A stretch of DNA of 63,015 nucleotides, filler included, from Collodictyon triciliatum (GCA_043381765.1; 13 parts of 13 records of this genome joined end to end with filler, not necessarily neighbours in it); one strand, 5' to 3'; counted from the whole stretch's first letter, positions 13,501 to 35,410 are shown. Numbers and translations: made by a program. Notes: generated by a model from the letters alone, not told the origin.

Positions 13501-14922
13501 GGTAAGGCTGGTTGCTGAGTTGGGGCTGTGTCAAATCGATTCAGTACAGAAATTTTCAGATGTTCACTCATCTTGAGCCTTGATTCCAATCTCGAAGCAC
13601 TCCCGACCGAATCTTTATGATATAATGTAATAAGTCACAAGTATTTTAATGCAAGTTTTTTTTTATTAAAATCTACAGTATGTTACATCAATATACCATT
13701 CGACGTTCCGATTTCGCTGTTGAGAATCTTTGATAGACGAATAATTTCTGCAGTTGCGTTTCTTTTTTGGGGAATTGGAGAGAGAGAAAAACATCTTACT
13801 TTTACTCACGCACAATTTTTTTCGATTAACCCTTCGGGTTTTCATAAGAGCTATGTTCATTCGTTTAACTCAGAAGTTGGGGAGAGAATACTCACACATA
13901 ATATTTCTCTTGGACCAAGGGGTCCAATACCTCAGTAATATAGCATGCAACATAGATATGAGACGGGTCATTCTCGGAGCAGGCATTCGAAGCTTGATTC
14001 GATCGCAATCCGTATATGACCTTATTTTTTCTGTATAGATGCACATACTCATCCGAGAGAGGTGGTGGCCCAAGCACATCATAACCGTCTGCAGATAATG
14101 AATTCAAAAGTAAGTTCCAGTTGATATTTTGAATTTAGATAATAACGTAATAATGCTTCAATAGTATTCATGCTAACGTGAAACTAAACCCAGGTTCTTT
14201 TGAATGATTGCTCTGTTTTTTGTCGATTCGCCAATAATTTTGTAACGCGATGATTGTGTGGTTGATATGGTTGTTTCTGAAACTGGTAAGGATCTCTGTT
14301 GCCAGCTTGCTCCGTTCCAAGAGTATGCATAGATACTGTTTTGTGCTCCTTCTGATAGGACCTGGACTATGCCGCTGGCATAATACACGCTTTTTCCGAA
14401 ATACTGATTCGAAAAAGATCCGTCTATTCTTGAATGCAAAAAGAACTGAGTGTCGATGCGGTTGTAAATGTAAACAGCTCCAGAGTTTTGCAAAGAGGCA
14501 TCAGAAGCACATTTCTCGCATCCAACCACAACGACTTTGGAAGCAACAGCAACCGATGAACCAAACTCCACATTTTGATACGGGGTCGGCATTATGATTC
14601 GCTGGGTTTGAATCCACTCATCAGCATTCGAAAGTGTAAATAAATAAACTGCACCAGCCTTATCCAAATCATCAACTATTTCAAAGGGAGCACTAACTAT
14701 TGCATAGCCTTCCATAATGGAGACAGCTTTACCAAACCCCATATGGATTTGTACTTGCTTCGGTTGAAGCATTTGCATCACAGTCCACGACAACTTGGAG
14801 GTTTTCGTGTTTCCATTCGCAAGGAAATGGGATGCGAATATTGATTCCAAAAAGAAGGAATAAAGAATAAGTCGCGCTATGCGACAACCTTGAATGCTGC
14901 CCGTTGGGTGGAACCTCGCCAT
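10537..14922 (-). CDS. Adhesion-GPCR-like receptor: FG-GAP repeats + GAIN/GPS + TOM1/THH1/GPR137-like 7TM
   Basis: N-terminal hydrophobic segment and three FG-GAP-like repeats (FGKAVS...AGAVYLF; FGSSVAV...SGAVYIY; FGKSV). GPS motif PTCKSWNEATKSWVSDG...VCTSTHL|SDFAIYL across exons 12189-12345 and 11815-12044. Seven hydrophobic helices splice in phase to TGA at 10537, including LRLVYFVM and SLPFFFLYMVHSLMAFLW. Junctions between 12960 and 13900 are not fully resolved. Confidence 0.75.
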
Positions 14923-15028
14923 CACGCTTCGTTGTCCTTGTATGGGTCGGGCGAGCGTACTTCTTTCTTTATTTGATGTTGTCTAATTTAAAGAGTTGAG
15001 TTTAAAAGGACAGGCTTGCTGGAATGCC

Positions 15029-20840: not shown

Positions 20841-23800
20841 ATGCTTTCACGTTTCGCTCGCCAGTCCACAAAGACTGCCGCGCTGGTCATGTCTGCTCGC
20901 ACAGGTTTGCTTAGACTCTCGACTTAACTTCAAATCAATAGGCCAACTTGACCAGAATACTCAAGGCCTGTAGTACCTCCAAATTGAAGAATTATCCTAC
21001 TACACGCAATTATGATATTAAATATATCAATACGAATAAAGACTCTCTGGATAATATTTTAATGGAAATAAACTAAATCCTACTTCAGTACCCTCTGCGT
21101 TTGTCCGTCACAACACCACCGAAGGGAAAAAGAGCTTTGGTAACCTAAAGGATGAGGATCGCATCTTCACTAATCTTTATGGCCAGCGCGACTATGGAAT
21201 CAAAGGCGCCATGCTTCGTGTAAGTCGATCGTGCTATACACATATAGTCATATAAACCGGAGCTGACGTGGATTGATATAAAAATTAGCTATCTAAAACT
21301 ACATGTCCACTAAAAGCTATGTTTGTTATCTATTTTGTAGGGCGATTGGCACAGAACCAAAGACATTCTGCTGAAGGGACAGGACTGGATCATTGAGGAG
21401 ATGAAAAAGAGTGGGCTTCGCGGACGTGGTGGTGCTGGATTCCCCTCGGGACTCAAATGGTCATTCATGCCAAAAGTGTCCGATGGGCGGTAATGATATT
21501 CACATATATATCCATGACTGCCTCCTTCTCTTACAAATTAGTCAAGGGCTTCTGGTGGATTCAGCTGTTCCATCCATCAACCAGGCTCTGTGACGTGTGT
21601 GAAGTCCTGGCCCGAATTTTTTTTTTTTATTGTCCATCTGGTCCCCTTACACTCCACTAGTTGCAAACGCCTCTTTTGTGTTTTCTCACTCACTATATCT
21701 CATAGACCGCAGTATCTAGTCGTCAATGCCGACGAAGGTGAACCTGGAACATGCAAAGACAGAGAAATCATGAGGCACGATCCCCACAAACTCGTCGAGG
21801 GCTGCCTCCTGGCCGGCTTCGGCATGCGCGCCTGTGCTGGTACTGTGTCCCTCTCAGAAAATCCAAAAACTGGAATACTAATTAAGGAGAAAAGAAACTA
21901 CTCGTTTAATCGCATTCATGCATAACAATAATCCTCTTGTGCACCGGCTCGCACTCCTTCATATAGTCACGTATGAATTTCTATCATTCGAGAGAGTTTT
22001 CCAAACATAATTTCAATATTAGCATACATTTACGTACGTGGGGAGTTTGGATACGAAATTCAGCACCTCCAGGAGGCCATCGACCAAGCATATGCAGGTT
22101 TTTGTCGTATTTAAAGCATATTCAGGAGCTATTCTCGGCAAACCATGGAATAATCCTCGTAATACATCACCCAAACAGCTGGTTTCATCGGAAAGAACGC
22201 TTGCGGATCTGGTTATGACTTTGATGTCTACGTACATGCTGGTCTGTCATTAATATTGTTGTACCTATGGTTATGCATTCCCAATAGACACGTCCAACTT
22301 TTTTTTAAAAAAAATATGTATATAAGGCGCTGGCGCTTATATTTGTGGAGAGGAAACAGCGCTTATCGAGAGTTTGGAGGGAAAGCAAGGGAAGCCCCGC
22401 ATGAAGCCTCCATTTCCAGCAAACATTGGTTTGTGGGGATGCCCAACTACCGTTGCAAACGTCGAGACTGTTGCTGTTGCACCCACCATCCTCCGCCGGT
22501 AATCCTTTCATCTCTTCCCTACACCACAACAAATTCGAGAACACATAGACATCTTTGGTTACATGTGGTTGATATGGTATGTTGTAATCCATTTATGAAT
22601 CAATGCAATGGCTAGTGGTCCCGAATGGTTTGCCTCATTTGGACGCCCGAAGAACAGTGGTACCAAACTGTTTTGCATATCTGGCCATGTCAACAACCCT
22701 TGCACTGTTGAGGGTATACTTCAACTTCACTGTTATGACTTAGTTTTATGATTTTCTGTTTAAAACATGGGTCGCTGTGCGTTTTACTTCCTCTTCTCTT
22801 TACTTCAGACTGCTTAATATCAAGTAAATCATAACGGCATGAACTGTATTTACTCTGTAATATTCGTTATTGTTTTACATTCTACATACTTAACAAGTTT
22901 TCAAACACAACAGAGGAAATGAGCATCCCCTTGAAGGAGCTGATCGAACGTCACGCCGGTGGTGTCCGTGGCGGATGGGATAATCTTCTGGGCATCATTC
23001 CCGGTGGCGCCTCTGTCCCAATTCTTCCCAAATCTACCTGCTCCGAAGTCCTGTATGTAAACTCACGCTTCATATACCATGCACATAGAGAGGGAAATCA
23101 AGTTGACTAGCAAAAAAAAAAAAAAAAATCAGCCACCACACCCCCTTTGCTTGGATGACATTTTACTTTCATAACCATTTACCCTTCGACATTTCCAGGA
23201 TGGATTTTGATGCTCTTCGTGACGTCCGCTCTGGTCTAGGGACCGCTGCTGTGATTGTGATGGACAAGTCCACAGATGTTATCGAGGTCAAGAATGAAAG
23301 ATATTGGCTTCAGCCTTTAAACCCTAATCCACTGGCTTATACTTTTCCTGCTTTCTTCTTTTCCCTCCCATTCTAAGTACACTATCAACATTATCTGAGG
23401 AGTAAGAACATATGTAAACACATACTACATAATCCAGGCCATTGGACGACTTTCCACCTTCTACAAGCACGAAAGCTGCGGCCAATGCACTCCATGCCGC
23501 GAAGGCACCGGTTGGATGATGAAGATTATGGAGAGGATGCGCACCGGTGACGCGGAAATCGAAGAAATAGACATGCTCCACGTATGTTGCAGTACCTTCT
23601 ACACACAACGCACAATAGCTCTTGCCACTGAGTGAGACAGCCCCTGCTGATAATCCGAATCCAGAGTATTGCTAACACCTAACCCCGCCCATCACAGGAA
23701 ATCAGCAAGGAGATTGAAGGCCACACAATCTGCGCTCTGGGAGACGCTGCTGCTTGGCCCGTCCAGGGACTCATCCGCAGCTTCCGTCCCGAAATGGAGG

Positions 23801-25500: not shown

Positions 25501-28369
25501 ACATTCATACTATTTTGAGTGCCCCTAAATAACAATGAAAAGGAACTGCCTGCTCTGGTATCCTGATAGTAAGCTTCCTTAAACGAGTCCACATGTACTT
25601 GCTTGAAACTCGGGATTTCTTGCACCAGAGTTGAAACCAGAAGACTGACGCATGTTACGAAGCTTTCGATAAGTCACCTTTCCCTTCGTGCTCCCAGTTT
25701 TGACTGTTTTATATATATCAGGTATGGGATTGTTGATTGAAGAACAAGAGTTGGAAGAGAAATAAAGAAGATATTGCTCATCATAACTGGTCTCCAATAA
25801 GTAGCAACCTAAGTTATTACATCCACGGCCAGTCTATGACACATTCAAAAAGTGTATGGGTTAAAACAGTCTGGTTATCTTCGCCCGAAATTCTTACATC
25901 AGAAGAGCAACATTTCAGCATATGATCCCAATATTATTGCAAAAGAGCCCAATACAAGACATACATATGTGATTATATCCGAATTGTTAGTTTTCAGACT
26001 AAAATAGAGGTTAATTTTTCGTTTAGGGCAAAATAAGTCGTAATATAAAGTTTAAATGCCATGAATTTCGCATTTTTGGGAAATTCTACTTTTTTTTAAT
26101 ATAAGAATTTATGCTTTCGATATTAGCCACAAAATATATCGTTTCAGATAATCTTATAAAATTCTCTACATTATATTTTTCTGCATAAATCAATTTTTGG
26201 ATCACATGTTTCAATTATTGCCCTCCTGAGCATTTTGAAGTATCAAATATGTTTTCTGAATGCGTGTAATTTATATCAAAGTAATTTGTTTCTAAAAAAA
26301 TTGTGACAAATTATAAAGCAAATTTCCCTTTTATTTATAAGTCTCAAATATTTTCCGCTTTTTTATATGTTTAAAACATGAAACTCAAGAACCAGATGAG
26401 AAAGTATGCTGATTCATAGATGATTGTATCAGTTTACAGAACAGTAAAGATGTGTTAAAATAAATATATCGGTAATTAAATGAATTCCACTTAACACTGT
26501 ACAAATTAAATCAGATAGAATTTCGGGTATTCATCAATTTTGAAAGGTCGAAGTAGTAGGTATGAGGAAACAGTACGACCTAAATTATAGTATTTTTGTT
26601 TTTTCTTTGTAATAACAGGCACTGACCAGGCAAATTCTAAAATAGAAAAATAACCGAAGCAAATGAATTTTAGTGACTGTAATAAATTCAAATTACATTT
26701 TCAGACATAGAAATAAAGCGATGACCAGCTAAAAGATGCTTCAGCATCAAATTCGAAAAATTGTGATGCGCTTCTTTATTAAACAATGATGGTTGGTAGT
26801 GGAAATTTCAGCCAAAGAAATTTGATATAAACTGTATGATTTGTATTTGTTTCAGGAAAATCTCAAAATTATAGTTTAGTACCTCTTACTATACAACTAT
26901 GTATATTTGAAAGTGTTTTTTGAGCTTTTAGTGCATCTATTTATGAGACAGATGAATATGATATGATAAGTGAGAGCATTTCAATTCAGAATTGTACAGG
27001 GCAAAAATAAAATAAAATAAAATCGGTTTCCTAAAATTCAGCATAACGTTATTTTTACTGGTTCACTAACGAAATAAACTTTGGTATTGCAAAAACCATT
27101 TAATTGCATAAAAAGAGCAAAAAAAAAGAGTAATTTTTTTTGAATTTCTAGGATGTATAGAACCTCAGAATTGATTGTTTAAGTAATACAATAGTCATAA
27201 TCATTGTCTCAATATTGATTTTCCTAGCCCATTCATTCAATTGTACGAAGTCGTAATCAAATTTTATACTATTAGGAATATGACGTCATATTTTTGAATA
27301 AGCAGATAGAGCAGCACGTAATAGAACATTTTTATAGAGATAGTTTTGAATCAAAAGATCAGTAGTTTCCATAACCAATGGATGGTAAATAGTCCTTGTG
27401 CCTTTTCAAAATGAGGTTCCGATAGTATTTTTTGTTTTGCCAAAAATCACCGCCATTATAAATTTATATTGGGTCGAGTATAATGACGAAATAATGAGGA
27501 CCATTAAAAAAATTCATATTTAATATGAACCGGAATATTTTTCCATAACAAGAGAGATCTAATACTGCAAATCATTTTACAGCATTTCGAATAAAATCAA
27601 AGAAATTAGTAGCGTAATAGAACCCGCTTTGGTTAAATGTGCAGGTGAAATCATTTAAACAAGTAGGACACAACTTCAAATTTACTAAAGAATATAGAAT
27701 GGCATAGTGAGGTCGCCACAAAGATATATACGTAATGACATGAGTATTATTTTTTAGGGGTTCTAATGAACAAGATGAGGTCTTTTAATATTTGTATGTG
27801 TTGTGAAAAGGGCTATTTAAATTAAAAATTGATTAAAATTGGAGTGTCCTTTACAATAATGATTCAATAAATTACAGAAACAATAGTTGTTTTTAAAAAA
27901 TTCAAATGATTTAACCAAAATATTCACCCGGTACGCAAAGTAATCATTTGATAGTTTTGGTTTCCAGATTATTTCTTCAAGAGTATTAGTCATGGATATA
28001 AACACAATTTCGCCCATGATTTCTAAAATTAATTTAACATTTCATGCCAATTAAAATCGGAAGAAATGATGGCGTGATTTTGGGAAACAAATCAAAAGCT
28101 TGCACCTCCATCACCCCGTGCTTCACAGATGCGGGCATCTTTCGCTGCCGTGTGCGTTGCTTTCCCTGATGTGGAAGATTAATATTTCCGGAACCGTATA
28201 AAAAGGAGAGAACCGTTAGCGCTTCACAAGGCATGTGTGGGCGGGGATTACACGATCGCCCTTCGCAAACGACCGAACTCACAGCAAACACCGCCCCAAA
28301 CTCCGCGTTAACCCCCACAGACCCGCCTTGCGTCTTGCGTCTTGCCTCCCACCGGTCGTCGCCTGTTCG

Positions 28370-28576
28370 ATGGTGCAGCAGCTCCGGTCCCTCCTGGTGC
28401 TTGCCGGGTGCCTGGGCGCGCCCTTCCTCGTGTTCGTGGCGGTATACTACCTGCGCGAGGCATCCAAGGCCGCCACCCAGGCGCGCAGGGAGAAGGATCT
28501 GGCGGCCCTCATGGCGCGGTCCAAGGCCTTCTTCGAGCGTCCGCAGCAGGATCCGCGCTCTGCAAAGAAGGACTAG
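28370..28576 (+). CDS. Small single-pass membrane protein (68 aa), intronless, GC-rich
   Basis: MVQQLRSLLVLAGCLGAPFLVFVAVYYLREASKAATQARREKDL...; strong G/C third-position bias. Confidence 0.55.
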   Translation: MVQQLRSLLVLAGCLGAPFLVFVAVYYLREASKAATQARREKDLAALMARSKAFFERPQQDPRSAKKD

Positions 28577-28646
28577 CCCTGCCCTGCAGCCCAGCCAGCC
28601 AGCTGCAGACGAAGCGGCACGCTTACATAAAGACGCATATACATGC

Positions 28647-28779
<133 letters not shown>

Positions 28780-28856
28780 CATACACAAAGAGCGTTTAAG
28801 GGGAGAAGGCCAAGAGAGCGGGGAGGAGGGGCTTGTGGCTATCAACAGGGCGGGGG

Positions 28857-29876
28857 CTAGACCGAGGCGTGGACGCGGGCGCGGGCAAGCAGGGTCTTGC
28901 GGTCGCGGCGGTTGATGGTGAGGGCAAAGTCGCCGGAGGCCAGGACCTCGGAGGGCCCGAGGCAGTGGGGCTCGCCCTGCATGAAGTTGTCGGCCACGGT
29001 CTTTGTGGCGGGATGGTAGCCGACGAGGCGCTTGTTGCCGTCCTCGAAGAGGATGCGGACCTCGAGGGAGAAGCGGTGGATGCCGGCGGGCAGGGCGCAG
29101 AGCAGGCGGGCAAAGCGGACCCAGCACTCCTGGTGCGCGTGCAGCGGCCCGGGCGCGGCGGCGCTCTCCGTCTCGGGGTCGGGCACAAGCACCAGGGGCA
29201 GCGCGGTCGTGGCGGCCAGGTCCTCGGGCGGCAGCCGGTACACAAAGAAGGCCGTGCCGAAGATGTCGTGCGGGTCCAGCCGCTCCTCGTCCTCGTCCTC
29301 GCCGTCCGACTCCACCTCCACCTCGTCCTGGTCGTACACGTGCTCAGACTCTGCCGACCCGGAGCGCCGTGGCCCGCCCGTGCCCGTGGCAGTTGCTGTG
29401 GCAGTTGCTGTGGCAGTAGTTGTGGCTGTGGTTGTGGCTGTGGCTGTGGCCCGGTGCGACGAGGGGCAGACGGCCTTGTCGTCCGCGTAGAGGTAGTACG
29501 CCACCCATGCGCCCTGCGTGGGCGTCAGGTAGCAGAAGTGGTGCAGTGGGCGCCACATCTCCTGCGGCCGCTTGTAGCCCACGCAGTAGCGCGTCATGCG
29601 GCACCGCAGAAACGCCGTGCCGAAGATGCGGTCCTGCGTGTTGAAGCGCGAATACACCTTCGGCTCCGCCTGCTTGGCAAACCCGGCGTCCTTGCCAAAC
29701 ACAATCTGCCCCGCGTGCGCCTGGTGCAGCCCCGACGGCGTGAACTTGTCCGGCCACACCTCGAACAGCGGCGTCCCGAGCTCCCCGGGATTCAGCCACC
29801 CGGCCGGCCAGAACCCTTCGCTCAGCGACTTTGCAGGCCCTGCCGCCCCGCTGTTGCCGTTGCTGTTGCCGTTGCC

Positions 29877-29923
<47 letters not shown>

Positions 29924-29954
29924 CGCCGGCCTCTGTGCTTGCGCCTGCCCCCAT
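28857..29954 (-). CDS. Intronless GC-rich hypothetical protein (365 aa) with N-myristoylation-like start
   Basis: Starts MGAGAS (MGxxxS). NS and AT dipeptide runs separate globular segments; IFGTAF occurs twice; G/C-ending codons dominate in this frame. Confidence 0.7.
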
Positions 29955-32900
29955 CCCCTTCGGTCCTTGATCTGCCGGCGGGTTGCTGGCTGTCTGCTAT
30001 CGAGGCCCCTGCTGAAAGGTGTGCAGCCCAGAAGGTCTTGGTTGTTGCAAGGGGAGAATGAGTCTGCTGGAACCATGTTTGTCTCTCCTCATCGACCCCA
30101 GCATCCGGCTCATTGCCTCTTTGTTCCTTTTCTTTTTCTTTTTCTTTATTTTTTTCATCTTTTTCATCTTTTTCAATTTCTTCTTCTTTTTTCTTTTTTC
30201 TTTTTTCATCTTTTTCATCTTTTTCAATTTCTTCTTTTTTCTTTTTTCTTCTTTTTCTTCTTTTTCTTCTTTTTCTTCTTTTTCTTCTTTTTCTTCTTTT
30301 TCTTCTTTTTCTTCTTTTTCTTCTTTTTCTTCTTTTTCTNNNNNNNNNNNNNNNNNNNNNNNNNNNNNNNNNNNNNNNNNNNNTTAATTAATTAANNNNN
30401 NNNNNNNNNNNNNNNNNNNNNNNNNNNNNNNNNNNNNNNTTGGTGGATCGGCGGCTCCTAGTTTTCCCGATGGTCTGAAGTAAAGGTCTAAGAACGTACG
30501 GTGGGGGTGTTGGGTTGTGTTGTGTGTGGAAGTAAGTATGTCTTTATCCAGTCATTCATGACCAAAAAAATAATAATAAAAAAATCAAACTATTCTTTGT
30601 AAATTTCTGTAATCAAAAGTCGTGTATCCTCTTTTGCGGTAAGGAGACTTTGTTTAATTTGAAAACGTTACCTATTTAACATAAAAATAAAGCATGCATA
30701 AAGTCGAATAGTTTTTAATTAAAAATATTTCACTTGTAAAACTATTACTGATGATGATAGAACAAAAATCTATAGAATTAAGAATTATCATCGGAGTCTG
30801 GCCATGCTAGTTATTTTATTATTAAGTTGATAGATTTAAAAATAGTATGCAAACATGGAATCAATATTTTAATATTTACAATATAATTGCCTCAGCTATA
30901 TATTTTGTAATGAATTTTAATCAAGATGAATGGTCTGCCTACAGAATCGTCAAGCTACGTCGTTTATTTTTCAATAATTGTATTACGTATCGCCTTTTGA
31001 ATACTAAATCTGTAGAAAAATTTAAAATACGTATCTACCAGAAAGTCTTTGTTATCTACAGGATTCTTAGTGTCCATATTTTAAATTCCCTTTTAATTAA
31101 ATGAATATATACACTTTTGCATCAAATACGAATTAAAAAAACCAACTAACCAAAATATAAACCATTCTAATATCCAAATCGAAAAACACATACCATATAT
31201 CCGCTAAAAACCAGTTTGCCGCTAAATGATACACCACCCCTCCCCTTGACCGACCTGCAATCATTTGTCCACAGCTTCACGCCCATACCCCTCACCTTAC
31301 TAGACCTTGTTCGTTTCTCCAAGTGAAAATGATTTGTAAGTTTACCGCTCAATAAATAAACCAATATATATATATACATATATTAGTTAATCGTTGCTGA
31401 ATCATCTAAATTAGTTTAATTTTCTCCCTTGGTTATATAGATGTCGATTTATCAAATCCAACAAACCCACCCTCCCCTTCCAATTCCAAATCAATCAGAG
31501 GTAAGAAAGCATACCGATATTCGTTTTTGCGGTGCCCGACTAACCAAGGATTTGATAGATGGCTCATGTCCTTTCTATTTTTTTACAATTGTTATCATTC
31601 ACGTGTATTCATAAAATCCTTTTTTTGCATCTGAAATATGTCTCGTATATTTATGTTGATTTCTTAACGATTTATCTATCTAATCCACCCCATATACATA
31701 TGACTTCTATGATTGTTTCATATTAGTGATTCTATCATATTATCAAGTCTCTGATATTGTTCAGTTTATTATGTTTGGTCAAATATGGTCGAGTACTAGA
31801 ATTAAATACGATTGCAATTTAATTTATCTCTGTATTATTCATCAATTTTCAACTAGGAACATTATCTCTGTATTGGTGCACACGTAAAATACCTCAATGA
31901 CTAAATTCTCAATTAAAAATTACCTTTGAAACGATTGCGCTAGTAAATTTATTAATATTCAGACTTTTTTTTGCCTTTCTTATACATTAATAACTATATT
32001 TTGTATCAAAATTTTAGTACTAACTTTAGTGTAATAGACTTATTTTATTCAGAGCTCCAAAGAACCTTTATAGCACATAGTCTACAAATTCTCAATGAAA
32101 TTATATATAGGATTTACATACGACATATCACTATTAATAGTCAAAATAATAAATCAATTTTTTTTATCAGAGTGCATTTTTTATTAGTATAGCTAGTTTT
32201 AGTTCAATGAATCATTTCAATATGGCTACTGTGACAAATATGTCATTTAAAGAGGATCAATTATAAATCACTATATTTGACACTTATGATAGGGAATTTG
32301 ATAATAATTGACATTAATCAGGAAAATAAATGCAAAATAATACTGAAACTGGTTGTGAATCATGAAATCTACTAGAGATGATATCCAATACTCACACAAC
32401 ACCTTTTAAAACTGAAATCGGTTGTTAATGAAATTTTAACAAATAATAGGGTGTGATTCATCGCTTGAGCCCCTATTTTGTACATAGACGGTTATACTTC
32501 AAGAGTTAACATATTTTAAATATAGTCAATAATATAGTTAACTGAAAGACAATTTGCAAAGTTATATTAAATCATAGTTTTAATTTCCAAACAGAGCTTA
32601 TCGAAACTATGTTCTAAAGGAAATATTTTTGCTTGCTCCTATATGATATCCATTCGATGTAGTCAAGCGTACAGGATTTATTTTATCATTGAACAATATA
32701 AGATATCTAATAATATGAATATTTTTACAGCTATGATTGTTTGATTAAGTATATATAATGTTATACGGAAACATTAAAATGATTCGAATTCATATATCTC
32801 GATAAATATGCACATTAAGATAATATATAATATCCTGATTAATTTTATTGGAATATATTGGTATTCATAGTTTTTCATTTAGAGGAATATTAAAATATAT

Positions 32901-34292
32901 GTTAAACAAATAAAGTAATTTTTCAAAGGATACCGCTGATTCTGGAAATGAATATTTTATGATATTATATTTTACAATATTCATCTGATGAAGAATCTAT
33001 TAATACTTGAACTTAAATTAATTATCTTATATGTCATTTCAATTTTAATGTTATTTCCATACATATTTCATAATTAATCAATATGCCAATTAATTAGTTA
33101 TTAAAATTATATCTCTTAAATCACTTATTACTTTTAAATATTATATCATCCGCTCATCCAATTTTTGTAATGCTGAGAAAACAAGGACTTAATGTATGAT
33201 ATATTTTTGATAGATTAAATAAATAAATAAATTGGATGTTTTGTGAATTTAGACGCTGTTTTAAAGAATACATGATTGAACAACCAATTTACTAATTATT
33301 TCTTTGTTTTTGTCAATATTATATACGAAATATGTGAACAAAAATGTAAGCAAATGATTGACATATGATTTCCTTGATGACATGTTTTATTCATAATTTT
33401 AATATACATTTAATTTCTTGATACACATAACATATAACTGTTTTTTCATATTGCATTTTTTAAAATCATGCAAATTGTTTGAATAATAATTCATTCTATA
33501 TTTTTAAGAATAGGTGTGATATGTTTTGATTTAAAAGTGCATATAATTGATTGAAAAAAGTCTGTTGTGAAATCATCGGCTATTTTGGTTATCACAATTT
33601 ATTGATTTATAACATAGACAAACCAAACTTATTCTTCTCAAACTGATCCATGTATTATTCTATCATTTAAATTTAAACTTAATTTTCCCTTTGCTTTATT
33701 GTCATATCCTATTCATAATGAGGCTATTTTGCATGATTCCCATACTTTATATTGTGTTCCGTATGTCGTTTAATGATTTATTTGTATTGAAAAAATAAAT
33801 CATCTAATAATTTAATAGTGATTTTCCTTCAAGTACCACATTTAAATTTACATATTATTGATAGAAAAACGACTTTATTAAAAACATTAAATTAGACTAA
33901 TGAATTATTTTAATAAGTATTTATGAAAAATTTTGATTTGATATCGATTTATTTCGAGATGATTACCATGTTTTTTTAATGATTTTTCATGAATTAATTT
34001 GTCAAGTCACTATACCATCAAATAAAATAGTCAAAGCTTAACAATTGATATGAATCAGAGTCTTTTTACATTTGAGATTTTATTTCTATGAGTATTATTG
34101 AAGCCTTGCGTAGATAATCTATTTATGTATTTCTGAATAAATTAATTAAAATTTAAGTAGAATGATTCAATATTAGATGTTTAAGAAAATGTGTTGATTG
34201 GGTATTACACCATTTCATAAAATTTTGTATAAATGTTTAAACACTCTTTCCATGAATTTAGAATGAGATTGAACTCAAATTCTTTTGCAACC

Positions 34293-35410
34293 ATGTTGCT
34301 GTTGGGTGAGTCATTACATTTTAATTGTTTTATTTTATTTATCATTAATTGCTAAAGATTGCATAGAATTTTAAGTAATATATTTTTAGGATTGATGCTC
34401 CACTGCCTATTTTGTCTTGTTGAAGGGCGAAATGATTCGATACGCACACTAACTGGTCATACCAGTAGTGTTGACAGTGTTGCCATTACTCCTGATGGTT
34501 CAAAAATTGTTTCTGGAAGTTGGGATAGAACAATCAAAATCTGGAATCTTTCTAATGGAACTTTGATTCACACATTGACTGGTCATACTAGTGAAGTTCG
34601 TTATGTTGTCATTACTCCTGATGGCTCAAAAGTTGTTTCTGGTGGTGGTGATAAAACAATCAAAATTTGGAATCTTTCTGATGGAGCTTTAATTCGCACG
34701 TTGAATGGCCATACTAATTATGTTTACAGTGTTTCTGTTACTCCTGATGGCTCAAAAGTTGTTTCTGGTGGTGATAAAACAATCAAAATTTGGAATCTTT
34801 CTGATGGAGCTTTGATTCGCACATTGATTGGTCATACATATGAGGTTTACAGTGTTGCTGTCAGTCCTGATGGCTCAAATATTGTTTCTGGAAGTAGAGA
34901 TCAAACAATCAAAATCTGGAATCTTTCTGATGGAGCTTTGATTCGCACATTGACTGGTCATACTAGTATTGTTTACAGTGTTGTTGTCACTCCTGATGGT
35001 TCAAAAATTGTTTCTGGAGGTTCTGATAAAACAGTCAAAATTTGGAATCTTTCTGATGGAGCTTTGATTCGCGCATTGACTGGTCATACAAGTACTGTTT
35101 GCAGTGTTGTTGTCACTCCTGATGGTTCAAAAATTGTTTCTGGAAGTTATGATAAAACAATCAAAATTTGGAATCTCACCTATGGAACTTTGATTCGCAC
35201 ATTGAATGGGCATACTAATTGGGTTCGCAGCGTTGCTGTTACTCCGGATGGCTCGAAAATTGTTTCTGGAAGCTGGGATATAACAATCAAAATTTGGGAT
35301 GCTCCAGAGTTACTTTGTTCTGCTGGTCAGTTTTATGATTCAGTTTCAAAGTCTTGTCAAATATGCCCATCTGGAAGCTATAGTGCTGGGGGTGCTACAT
35401 ATTGTTCCTT
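34293..35410 (+). CDS. Secreted/surface WD40 protein: signal peptide + 7 highly similar WD repeats + Cys-rich (ephrin-receptor/GCC2-GCC3-like) repeat, 3' partial
   Basis: Exon 34293-34305 (ATGTTGCTGTTGG|GTGAGT) splices to 34390, giving MLLLGLMLHCLFCLVEG|RNDS. Seven GH...WN/WD units of 126 bp (one 123 bp) follow, then CSAGQFYDSVSKSCQICPSGSYSAGGATYC. Confidence 0.9.

Follow-up and report, generated by a model that had tools for sequence, protein, structure and literature searches.

A probable secreted or membrane-anchored WD40 propeller joined to an ephrin-receptor-like cysteine-rich module in the protist Collodictyon triciliatum

WD40 propellers are among the commonest interaction platforms of eukaryotes. 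In the literature that we searched, they are treated as intracellular; wording for an extracellular or secreted WD40 appeared only in a structure paper on CRINKLY4 and in a review of cyanobacterial orthocaspases. Can a canonical WD40 propeller be exported by a eukaryote? This question is raised by one gene in a stretch of 63,015 nucleotides from the freshwater protist Collodictyon triciliatum (GCA_043381765.1; hereafter, the window). The window comprises 13 separate contigs of approximately 5 kb (the last is 2.2 kb), which are joined by N44-TTAATTAATTAA-N44 spacers; no linkage is implied between genes on either side of a spacer. The WD40 gene occupies the 3′ end of the contig 30440-35410 (4,971 nt, GC 0.288) and is truncated by the contig end. 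What the contig preserves is probably no more than two thirds of the gene, from its 5′ side. A first-pass annotation had interpreted it as a surface-displayed variable receptor built of homogenised repeats. The layout behind that interpretation, namely a signal-like peptide, a seven-blade WD40 array and a cysteine-rich (Cys-rich) module in one frame, was recovered in our analysis, and the homogenisation was not. We consider it probable that the encoded protein, with its WD40 head carried by an ephrin-like Cys-rich stalk, is either secreted or anchored in a membrane.

Seven stretches of the encoded protein matched the Pfam family WD40 (PF00400) above the gathering threshold (E 3.4e-85, 277 bits against a cut-off of 27). 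The units are 42 amino acids long, except for unit 3 (41 amino acids), which has one codon fewer in the b-c turn. Tandem Repeats Finder described the array as 6.8 copies of period 126 with 84% matches. In the AlphaFold2 (AF2) model, which was based on a 30-row alignment, 28 strands are predicted to form a closed seven-blade propeller (pLDDT, the predicted local distance difference test, 91.7; pTM, the predicted template modelling score, 0.87). The predicted velcro closure uses the first strand (residues 17-20 of the frame P0001) as strand d of the last blade, and residues 1-14 of P0001 are unstructured in the model. The best Foldseek match was a designed seven-blade WD40 protein (7big_A, TM-score 0.97, rmsd 0.7 Å), followed by PkwA (5yzv) and a Nostoc protein (2ymu). 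In the PDB sequence search, 2ymu_A was the best match (E 6e-285).

H8, S26, D30, and W36 are invariant in seven of the seven units, which fits the stabilising DHSW tetrad described for repetitive WD40s (PMC5587647, as far as the available text goes). In that study, Hu et al. (2017) define Highly-Repetitive WD40s (HR-WD40s) by an internal identity cut-off of 0.7 and report them from bacteria, fungi, and protists. The internal identity here is 0.725, just above the cut-off, by our own count rather than by the procedure of Hu et al. Furthermore, the HR-WD40s of Nostoc punctiforme (2YMU) and PkwA (5YZV, TM-score 0.97) gave the best sequence and structure matches. By its sequence and predicted fold, this propeller would be placed among the highly repetitive WD40s. 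In the available part of the same study, known HR-WD40s are mostly joined to STAND NTPase, kinase, peptidase or caspase-like domains.

What follows the propeller here is of another kind. After the last blade, the same exon and frame run on into a Cys-rich repeat, as the first-pass annotation had reported, until the contig end truncates it (Table 1). The ephrin-receptor-like, TNFR, and ELAPOR TNFR-like families are extracellular or luminal disulfide modules. Against Pfam, the tail matched PF23091 (TNFR_ELAPOR1_6th; E 3.3e-4, 21.0 bits, cut-off 33.2), PF07699 (Ephrin_rec_like; E 5.5e-3, 16.9 bits, cut-off 23.1) and PF00020 (TNFR_c6; E 0.012). In the PDB, it matched only ELAPOR1 (E 0.01, at several of the repeats), EphA2, and one TNFR-like protein from a virus. 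In the ESM Atlas, the nearest clusters were protist Ephrin_rec_like proteins, at a score of 0.81 that is a lead only. A metagenome locus that shares the tail's words (L020) encodes a signal-peptide-bearing protein of Ephrin_rec_like repeats (E 7e-28). AF2 predicted small hairpins with falling confidence for the tail. Pfam, the PDB, and the ESM Atlas agree on one putative class of extracellular or luminal repeat, and L020 supports this assignment. With the Ephrin_rec_like (GCC2_GCC3) and ELAPOR1 proteins (PF07699, PF23091, PDB 9vqm, L020), the tail shares both the spacing and the residues of C...C-x2-CP-x-G-x-Y-S...C. In contrast, those proteins are without a WD40 head, and here 36 residues of the module are visible, with scores under the cut-offs.

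The continuity of propeller and Cys-rich module was observed in contigs from two different studies. A freshwater metatranscriptome contig of 166 nt (X9) covers 35218-35364 with 0 differences and bridges the junction (35303-35316). A contig of 892 nt (X1) covers 35119-35410 with three differences, one of which is a replacement at unit position 10, and extends 600 nt past the contig end. Within the array, a metatranscriptome contig of 153 nt (X8) is an exact match to 34643-34795. If the gene were a non-functional accident of evolution or of assembly, in which a WD40 array that had been duplicated or newly gained (possibly from bacteria) came to lie beside unrelated Cys-rich coding sequence, or if it were a decaying pseudogene, neither this bridging by the contigs of two studies nor the RNA-library matches with 0 differences would be expected. 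Moreover, 339 codons are open, dN/dS (the ratio of nonsynonymous to synonymous rates) is 0.21-0.35 outside six hot codons, and the tetrad is intact in all blades. The accident would accord with the 29% GC of the contig, the 3.85 kb of non-coding sequence upstream, the cyanobacterial origin of the nearest solved and database relatives, and the lack of a relative with the same domain order. However, the array is 50% similar to the designed consensus propeller WRAP-T. This likeness to designed consensus propellers shows that the bacterial resemblance reflects closeness to the consensus and not necessarily gene transfer. We regard an accident as highly improbable.

The searches for relatives returned WD40 proteins of many kinds. 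The best protein matches were NACHT/NB-ARC/nSTAND-WD40, kinase-WD40 and similar proteins from cyanobacteria, fungi, and Reticulomyxa, with at most 60% identity. Homologue searches at longer and near lengths gave generic WD40 proteins only, with neither the protein itself nor a close relative among them. Among 383 retrieved relatives, none carries a Cys-rich ephrin-like module. When blade 7 and the tail were used as the query, the best 150 matches listed were giant WD40 proteins, with scores summed over many blades, and the five alignments that reach the tail are without Cys there. Residues 262-339 gave WD40 clusters only in the ESM Atlas (scores of at most 0.85), and the longer-homologue search on residues 296-339 gave no candidate, which is weak evidence. 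In metagenome contigs, at least 22 related loci were found among at least 597 pattern matches listed, and seven of the 22 were examined (L001, L004, L005, L007, L018, L020, and L021). Apart from one Ephrin_rec_like protein and one that is unrelated, these seven encode WD40 proteins of the plain kind; none of them joins both modules.

Would the protein be exported? At the 5′ end, we infer a splice with the donor tgttgg/GTGAGT at 34305/34306 and the acceptor TTTTTAG/G at 34389/34390. Spliced as predicted, the ATG comes into frame with the long open reading frame (ORF) 34356..35410+. With the intron retained, the upstream frame terminates at 34353-34355. A 13-nt first exon completing a signal peptide had been annotated earlier. 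Its ATG (34293), donor, acceptor, and frame are all present, and ATG 34263 offers an alternative first exon of 43 nt. Both ATGs lie within one in-frame ORF (34233..34355) with no stop between them, and the start at ATG 34263 gives the better putative signal peptide, with an Arg in the n-region. The four-codon upstream ORF could shift initiation to ATG 34293. Signal peptides were judged by heuristics (n-region, hydrophobic core of 7-15 or more residues, and small residues at -3/-1). The predicted spliced N-terminus has a hydrophobic core of 19 residues from which D, E, K, R, N, and Q are absent (Kyte-Doolittle(19) 2.21). The hydrophobic segment ends with V-E-G, followed by R-N-D-S, and the propeller begins four residues past the predicted cleavage site. 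No contig from the RNA runs was found over 34092-34423, and the joint 34305/34390 was not among the joints listed; the two joints listed fall inside the array and are artefacts of its repetition. A contig of lake-water DNA (X2) spans 34202-34352 unspliced, as expected of genomic DNA. Secretion is plausible and, in our estimate, somewhat favoured, on the basis of the predicted splice and the below-threshold Cys-rich match.

Table 1. Positions of the features of the WD40 gene, counted from the first nucleotide of the window
Feature	Position	Strand	Details	Basis
Upstream ORF, four codons	34253..34267	+	TGA stop overlaps ATG 34263 (ATGA)	Read from sequence
Predicted exon 1, 43 nt from ATG 34263 (13 nt from ATG 34293)	34263..34305	+	n-region and start of hydrophobic core	
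Signal-like segment (range includes intron)	34281..34427	+	Likely cleavage between 34427 and 34428	Heuristics
Predicted intron, 84 nt	34306..34389	+	GT..AG, GC 0.18, T-rich tract before TAG/G	Sequence only
Exon 2, open to contig end	34390..35410	+	339-amino-acid frame P0001 = 34392-35410	
Seven WD40 units	34437-34562, 34563-34688, 34689-34811, 34812-34937, 34938-35063, 35064-35189, 35190-35315	+		Pfam, AF2, Foldseek
Start of Cys-rich module	35316..35410	+	C-x12-C-x2-C-x12-C, 36 residues, ephrin-receptor-like / ELAPOR TNFR-like type	Pfam, PDB, ESM Atlas, L020

The blades also carry candidate N-glycosylation sites. Six of them end WNLS or WNLT, as had been noted in the first pass (five WNLS and one WNLT), and the seventh ends WDAP. 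Including N-D-S and N-G-T, there are eight sequons in total, and shuffled sequences gave 3.0 +/- 1.5. The model locates the WNLS/WNLT sequons in the last part of strand c and the c-d loop; by the standard WD40 topology, this is the bottom face. Among related proteins with at least five repeats (n=357), the motif occurs in at least half of the repeats in 10 of 357 and in at least 80% of the repeats in 4 of 357, and bacterial proteins are among those that show it.

The closest architecture is the ectodomain of the plant receptor kinases of the CRINKLY4 type (ACR4 and PpCR4), in which, in the available text of the structure paper, a signal peptide, a seven-bladed 'WD40' propeller and a TNFR-like Cys-rich domain are followed by a transmembrane (TM) helix and a kinase, and the propeller is proposed to bear a groove for ligand binding (bioRxiv 10.1101/2020.08.10.245050). 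The module order is the same in both; the propeller is near the mature N-terminus, and a short linker leads to a Cys-rich domain of weak TNFR likeness. In contrast, the blades here are canonical G-beta-type WD40 units with GH/WD signatures and a full DHSW tetrad. The seven blades contain a single Cys, at a variable site, and no conserved blade cysteines. We saw no sequence relationship between CRINKLY4 and this gene. As there are neither blade disulfides nor a pore-filling strand here, membership of CRINKLY4 fails. Thus, on the predicted domain order, CRINKLY4 is an analogue and not a family member. Another candidate for an extracellular WD40, PfWLP1 of Plasmodium, was rejected; it is without a signal peptide and intracellular (PMC4634918).

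Exported WD40 arrays were also found in bacteria. The loci L021 (4080-6236) and L007 (1049-3070) are bacterial, and each encodes an N-terminal signal-like peptide followed by many consensus-like WD40 blades. Both contain the Por_Secre_tail above threshold (E 2e-9 and 3e-10, respectively). Since this is a sorting domain of the type IX secretion system (T9SS), the two loci indicate that exported consensus-like WD40 arrays exist in bacteria. In addition, extracellular WD40 domains are predicted on membrane orthocaspases of cyanobacteria in the available part of a review (PMC7475262). The Collodictyon gene resembles these predicted exported arrays (L021, L007, and the orthocaspases) in having a putative signal peptide and then consensus-like WD40 blades with a predicted location outside the cytoplasm. 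However, the bacterial arrays are prokaryotic, have a Por_Secre_tail or a TM helix and at least 14 blades, and lack a Cys-rich stalk.

Several observations weigh against export and the receptor-like architecture. The putative secretion signal rests on a predicted splice, and, if splicing does not occur, the first usable Met (34396) keeps only approximately nine hydrophobic residues. All the Pfam matches of the tail are under the gathering scores, because only 36 residues of the module are present. The C-terminus lies beyond the contig end at 35410, and hence no TM helix, glycosylphosphatidylinositol (GPI) signal or further domain is visible. The same domain order was found in no protein or locus searched, in the protein sets or among the metagenome matches listed. 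In CRINKLY4, each blade has one disulfide and an N-terminal strand fills the pore, as described in the portions of the paper at hand, whereas this gene has no conserved Cys and an ordinary velcro strand d. Finally, the sequons would be compatible with secretion and are not evidence for it. Since the repeats copy one another and bacterial relatives show the same regularity, the sequons are weak evidence of glycosylation.

Could the protein then be cytosolic? The N-terminus might have been misread, with the true start at Met 34396 or in exons beyond the contig (for example, NB-ARC or NACHT exons), and the tail might be an intracellular metal-binding motif. The best database matches, which are NACHT/NB-ARC/nSTAND-WD40 and kinase-WD40 proteins with at most 60% identity, would suit such a protein, and so would the purely predicted state of the splice and the below-threshold Cys-rich matches. 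However, the 3.85 kb upstream of the gene contains no ORF longer than 92 codons. When 34 upstream ORFs of at least 35 amino acids (30440-34300) were compared with Pfam, no family was detected at E <0.03, and neither NACHT, NB-ARC nor another nucleotide-binding oligomerisation domain (NOD) was seen. Transcripts with an upstream NACHT or cytosolic exon had been named in the first-pass annotation as one observation that would overturn its reading; no NOD exon was found among these 34 ORFs in the 3.85 kb of this contig. Furthermore, a hydrophobic stretch stands directly before blade 1, and a canonical donor and acceptor complete its 19 residues. The spacing C-x12-C-x2-C-x12-C matches that of ELAPOR1 and ephrin-receptor-like repeats and not that of paired CxxC zinc motifs. 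STAND proteins normally terminate with their WD40 array, which also counts against a cytosolic protein of this type. A cytosolic location is, in our estimate, rather unlikely.

Given a secreted or membrane-anchored protein, where would its binding face be? The repeat strings quoted in the first-pass annotation are correct (GHT-SSVD/SEVR/NYVY/YEVY/SIVY/STVC/NWVR and SG-SWDR/GGDK/G-DK/SRDQ/GSDK/SYDK/SWDI). Per-column entropy is highest at unit positions 11 (six different residues among the seven units) and 29 (five in six), then at 13, 31, and 40 (four each), followed by 16, 6, 10, and 42. The AF2 model places unit positions 6-11 in the d-a loop, 12-17 in strand a, 29-31 in the b-c turn, and 38-42 in the c-d loop. 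According to the hotspot rule in the available text of Wu et al. (2012; PMC3419727), R1 and R2 stand in the pattern V/L/I, R1, R2, V/L/I, and D-1 precedes the tetrad Asp. By this rule, position 13 is R1, position 11 is R1-2, and position 29 is D-1, which gives three top-face hotspots; position 31 is D+1. Positions 11 and 13 flank a conserved Val, and positions 29 and 31 flank a conserved Asp. In the accessible part of Paoletti et al. (2007; PMC1805685), codons 7, 9, 25, and 27 of the Podospora NWD family are under positive selection; these codons (HET-E) are our unit positions 11, 13, 29, and 31. Mapped on the predicted structure, the variable residues are concentrated at the top-face hotspots and match the selected codons of HET-E, in agreement with the earlier claim of hypervariable binding-face positions.

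The proportion of nonsynonymous differences (pN) was 0.55 at codons 11/13/29/31, where a pair of units offers 9.4 sites, compared with 0.12 at the remaining 38 codons, whose proportion of synonymous differences (pS) was 0.25. A pN as high as that of the four hotspot codons was reached in 2 of 5000 random four-codon sets. The excess is suggestive and does not amount to a formal test; there are few sites, and the seven units do not represent independent observations. For a comparison with the class, we used those 206 of the 383 retrieved relatives in which six or more units fall into the same register and the internal identity is 0.55 or higher. Most of these repetitive WD40 proteins come from bacteria and fungi. 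Within them, variability is greatest at positions 11, 29, 13, 10, 31, 6, 42, and 39, and the variability profile of the gene correlates with theirs (Spearman 0.67, p 1e-6). Hu et al. (2017; PMC5587647) likewise describe the predicted hotspot sites of HR-WD40s as diverse, in the part of the text available. Since the same positions vary across 206 relatives, the variability is a class property and not by itself the mark of a diversifying receptor. Thus, the pattern, read from the sequence, shows the location of the putative binding face; it does not show that the gene is a diversifying receptor.

The degree of repeat conservation bears on the same question. The units had been described as nearly identical in DNA, which is overstated: their pairwise DNA identity is 0.74-0.90, their mean amino-acid identity is 0.725 (0.60-0.85), and their mean pS is 0.26 (dS ~0.32). 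The best unit pair reaches 85.4% amino-acid identity over 42 amino acids. With dS of ~0.3 among the units, recent homogenisation is not evident. Nor does the claim of homogenised repeats hold against the fungal standard, since 72.5% amino-acid identity is under the 85% that Dyrka et al. (2014; PMC4986451, available in part) set as the threshold for the high-internal-conservation repeats of fungal NOD-like receptors (NLRs). As in Podospora HET-E/HET-D/NWD (HNWD), the WD units are similar and of 42 residues, and the variation flanks the conserved Val and Asp (PMC1805685; PMC4986451). In the available portions of these two papers, HET-E/HNWD proteins are cytosolic, carry HET and NACHT N-terminal to the array, have repeats of approximately 85% identity or higher, and show concerted evolution and repeat-number polymorphism. 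In contrast, the Collodictyon gene encodes a signal-like peptide before the array and a Cys-rich module C-terminal to it; its repeats are 72.5% identical, and no NOD was found in the 3.85 kb upstream. Within this contig, it has the variability pattern of HET-E/NWD and has neither the NOD domain nor the 85% identity.

Related copies were sought in the window and in other contigs. A tblastn search with P0001 and its tail detected the gene itself only, and no paralogue within the window. Over 45-190 nt, some contigs of X1, X2, and X9 agree with the array at 90-100%, and beyond that they differ from it. Other X1 contigs (90-99% match) have replacements at positions 10, 18, 19, 23, 29, 30, and 31, as listed by a script. 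In the hand-translated loose ends of X1 and X2 contigs, the WD40 units continue with other residues at 9-13 and, in some, also at 16-17. One X9 loose end exits the array after W-N-L into the start of a C-G-Y-G-Y-F-D-like Cys module. These variant contigs indicate that the array is present in at least two related versions, which may be paralogues, alleles, or copies of other strains or species. One X1 contig of 191 nt, otherwise identical, has 3 nt fewer in the GGTGGTGGT run at ~34640, within the Gly run in the b-c turn of unit 2. This variant sits at the D-1 hotspot and resembles the one-codon gap of unit 3.

The variant contigs, together with the concentration of variation at four HET-E-type codons where pN exceeds pS, would be expected if the gene belonged to a family of surface receptors under active diversification through positive selection and the exchange of repeats, an extracellular counterpart of HET-E/HNWD. 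However, other strains or species may be the source of the metagenome contigs, and there is no paralogue in the window. Furthermore, the 72.5% identity is under the 85% of PMC4986451 (in the text available), dS is ~0.3, and the same positions vary in the 206 related proteins (Spearman 0.67). We regard active diversification of this kind as unlikely.

We return to the secreted or membrane-anchored protein. In such a protein, a cleavable signal peptide (or a signal anchor) would lead directly to a stable, closed, seven-blade consensus-like WD40 propeller. Ephrin-receptor-like or TNFR-like Cys-rich repeats would follow directly and probably form a stalk, which may be attached to a membrane. The propeller would be the ligand-binding head. 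Its top face, formed by d-a loops and b-c turns, differs from blade to blade, with few exceptions, in the residues at R1-2, R1, D-1, and D+1, and would thereby offer one asymmetric binding surface. On the bottom face, the N-x-S/T sequons of the c-d loops may be glycosylated.

Other features of the window were recorded as well. A multi-exon gene at 21500-23700 (+) presumably encodes a protein resembling the 51-kDa flavoprotein subunit of NADH dehydrogenase, judging from conserved motifs. It has many short introns, whereas the WD40 gene has an intron-free exon of >1 kb. An ORF at 14176-14982 (-) contains FG-GAP_2 repeats (E 1e-13), another extracellular-type propeller repeat. Leucine-rich repeat ORFs are present at 51788-52720 (-) and 53705-54337 (-) (LRR_1, E 8e-7; LRR_4, ~2e-4). 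The region 28000-30339 is an island of GC 0.63 amid 28-45% GC, with long open frames on both strands; its 513-amino-acid frame at 28800-30339 (+) gave no Pfam match.

The HR-WD40 module is a cytosolic recognition domain in the NLR-like proteins of fungi and bacteria. If our reading is true, a canonical, disulfide-free, consensus-like WD40 is exported by a eukaryote, and this very stable, highly repetitive form would work outside the cell. The gene would then represent a second, independent invention of the ectodomain with a propeller head on a TNFR-like stalk, and it would offer a small, designable binding scaffold from nature. A bolder possibility, to which we give a low probability, is that in this protist, and perhaps in its relatives, HR-WD40s moved to the cell surface as the variable heads of a receptor family on ephrin-like Cys-rich stalks, with blades and hotspot residues shuffled between paralogues for the recognition of prey, mates or non-self. 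Should there be a family whose blades can be exchanged, the diversification logic of NLRs would extend to a surface receptor.

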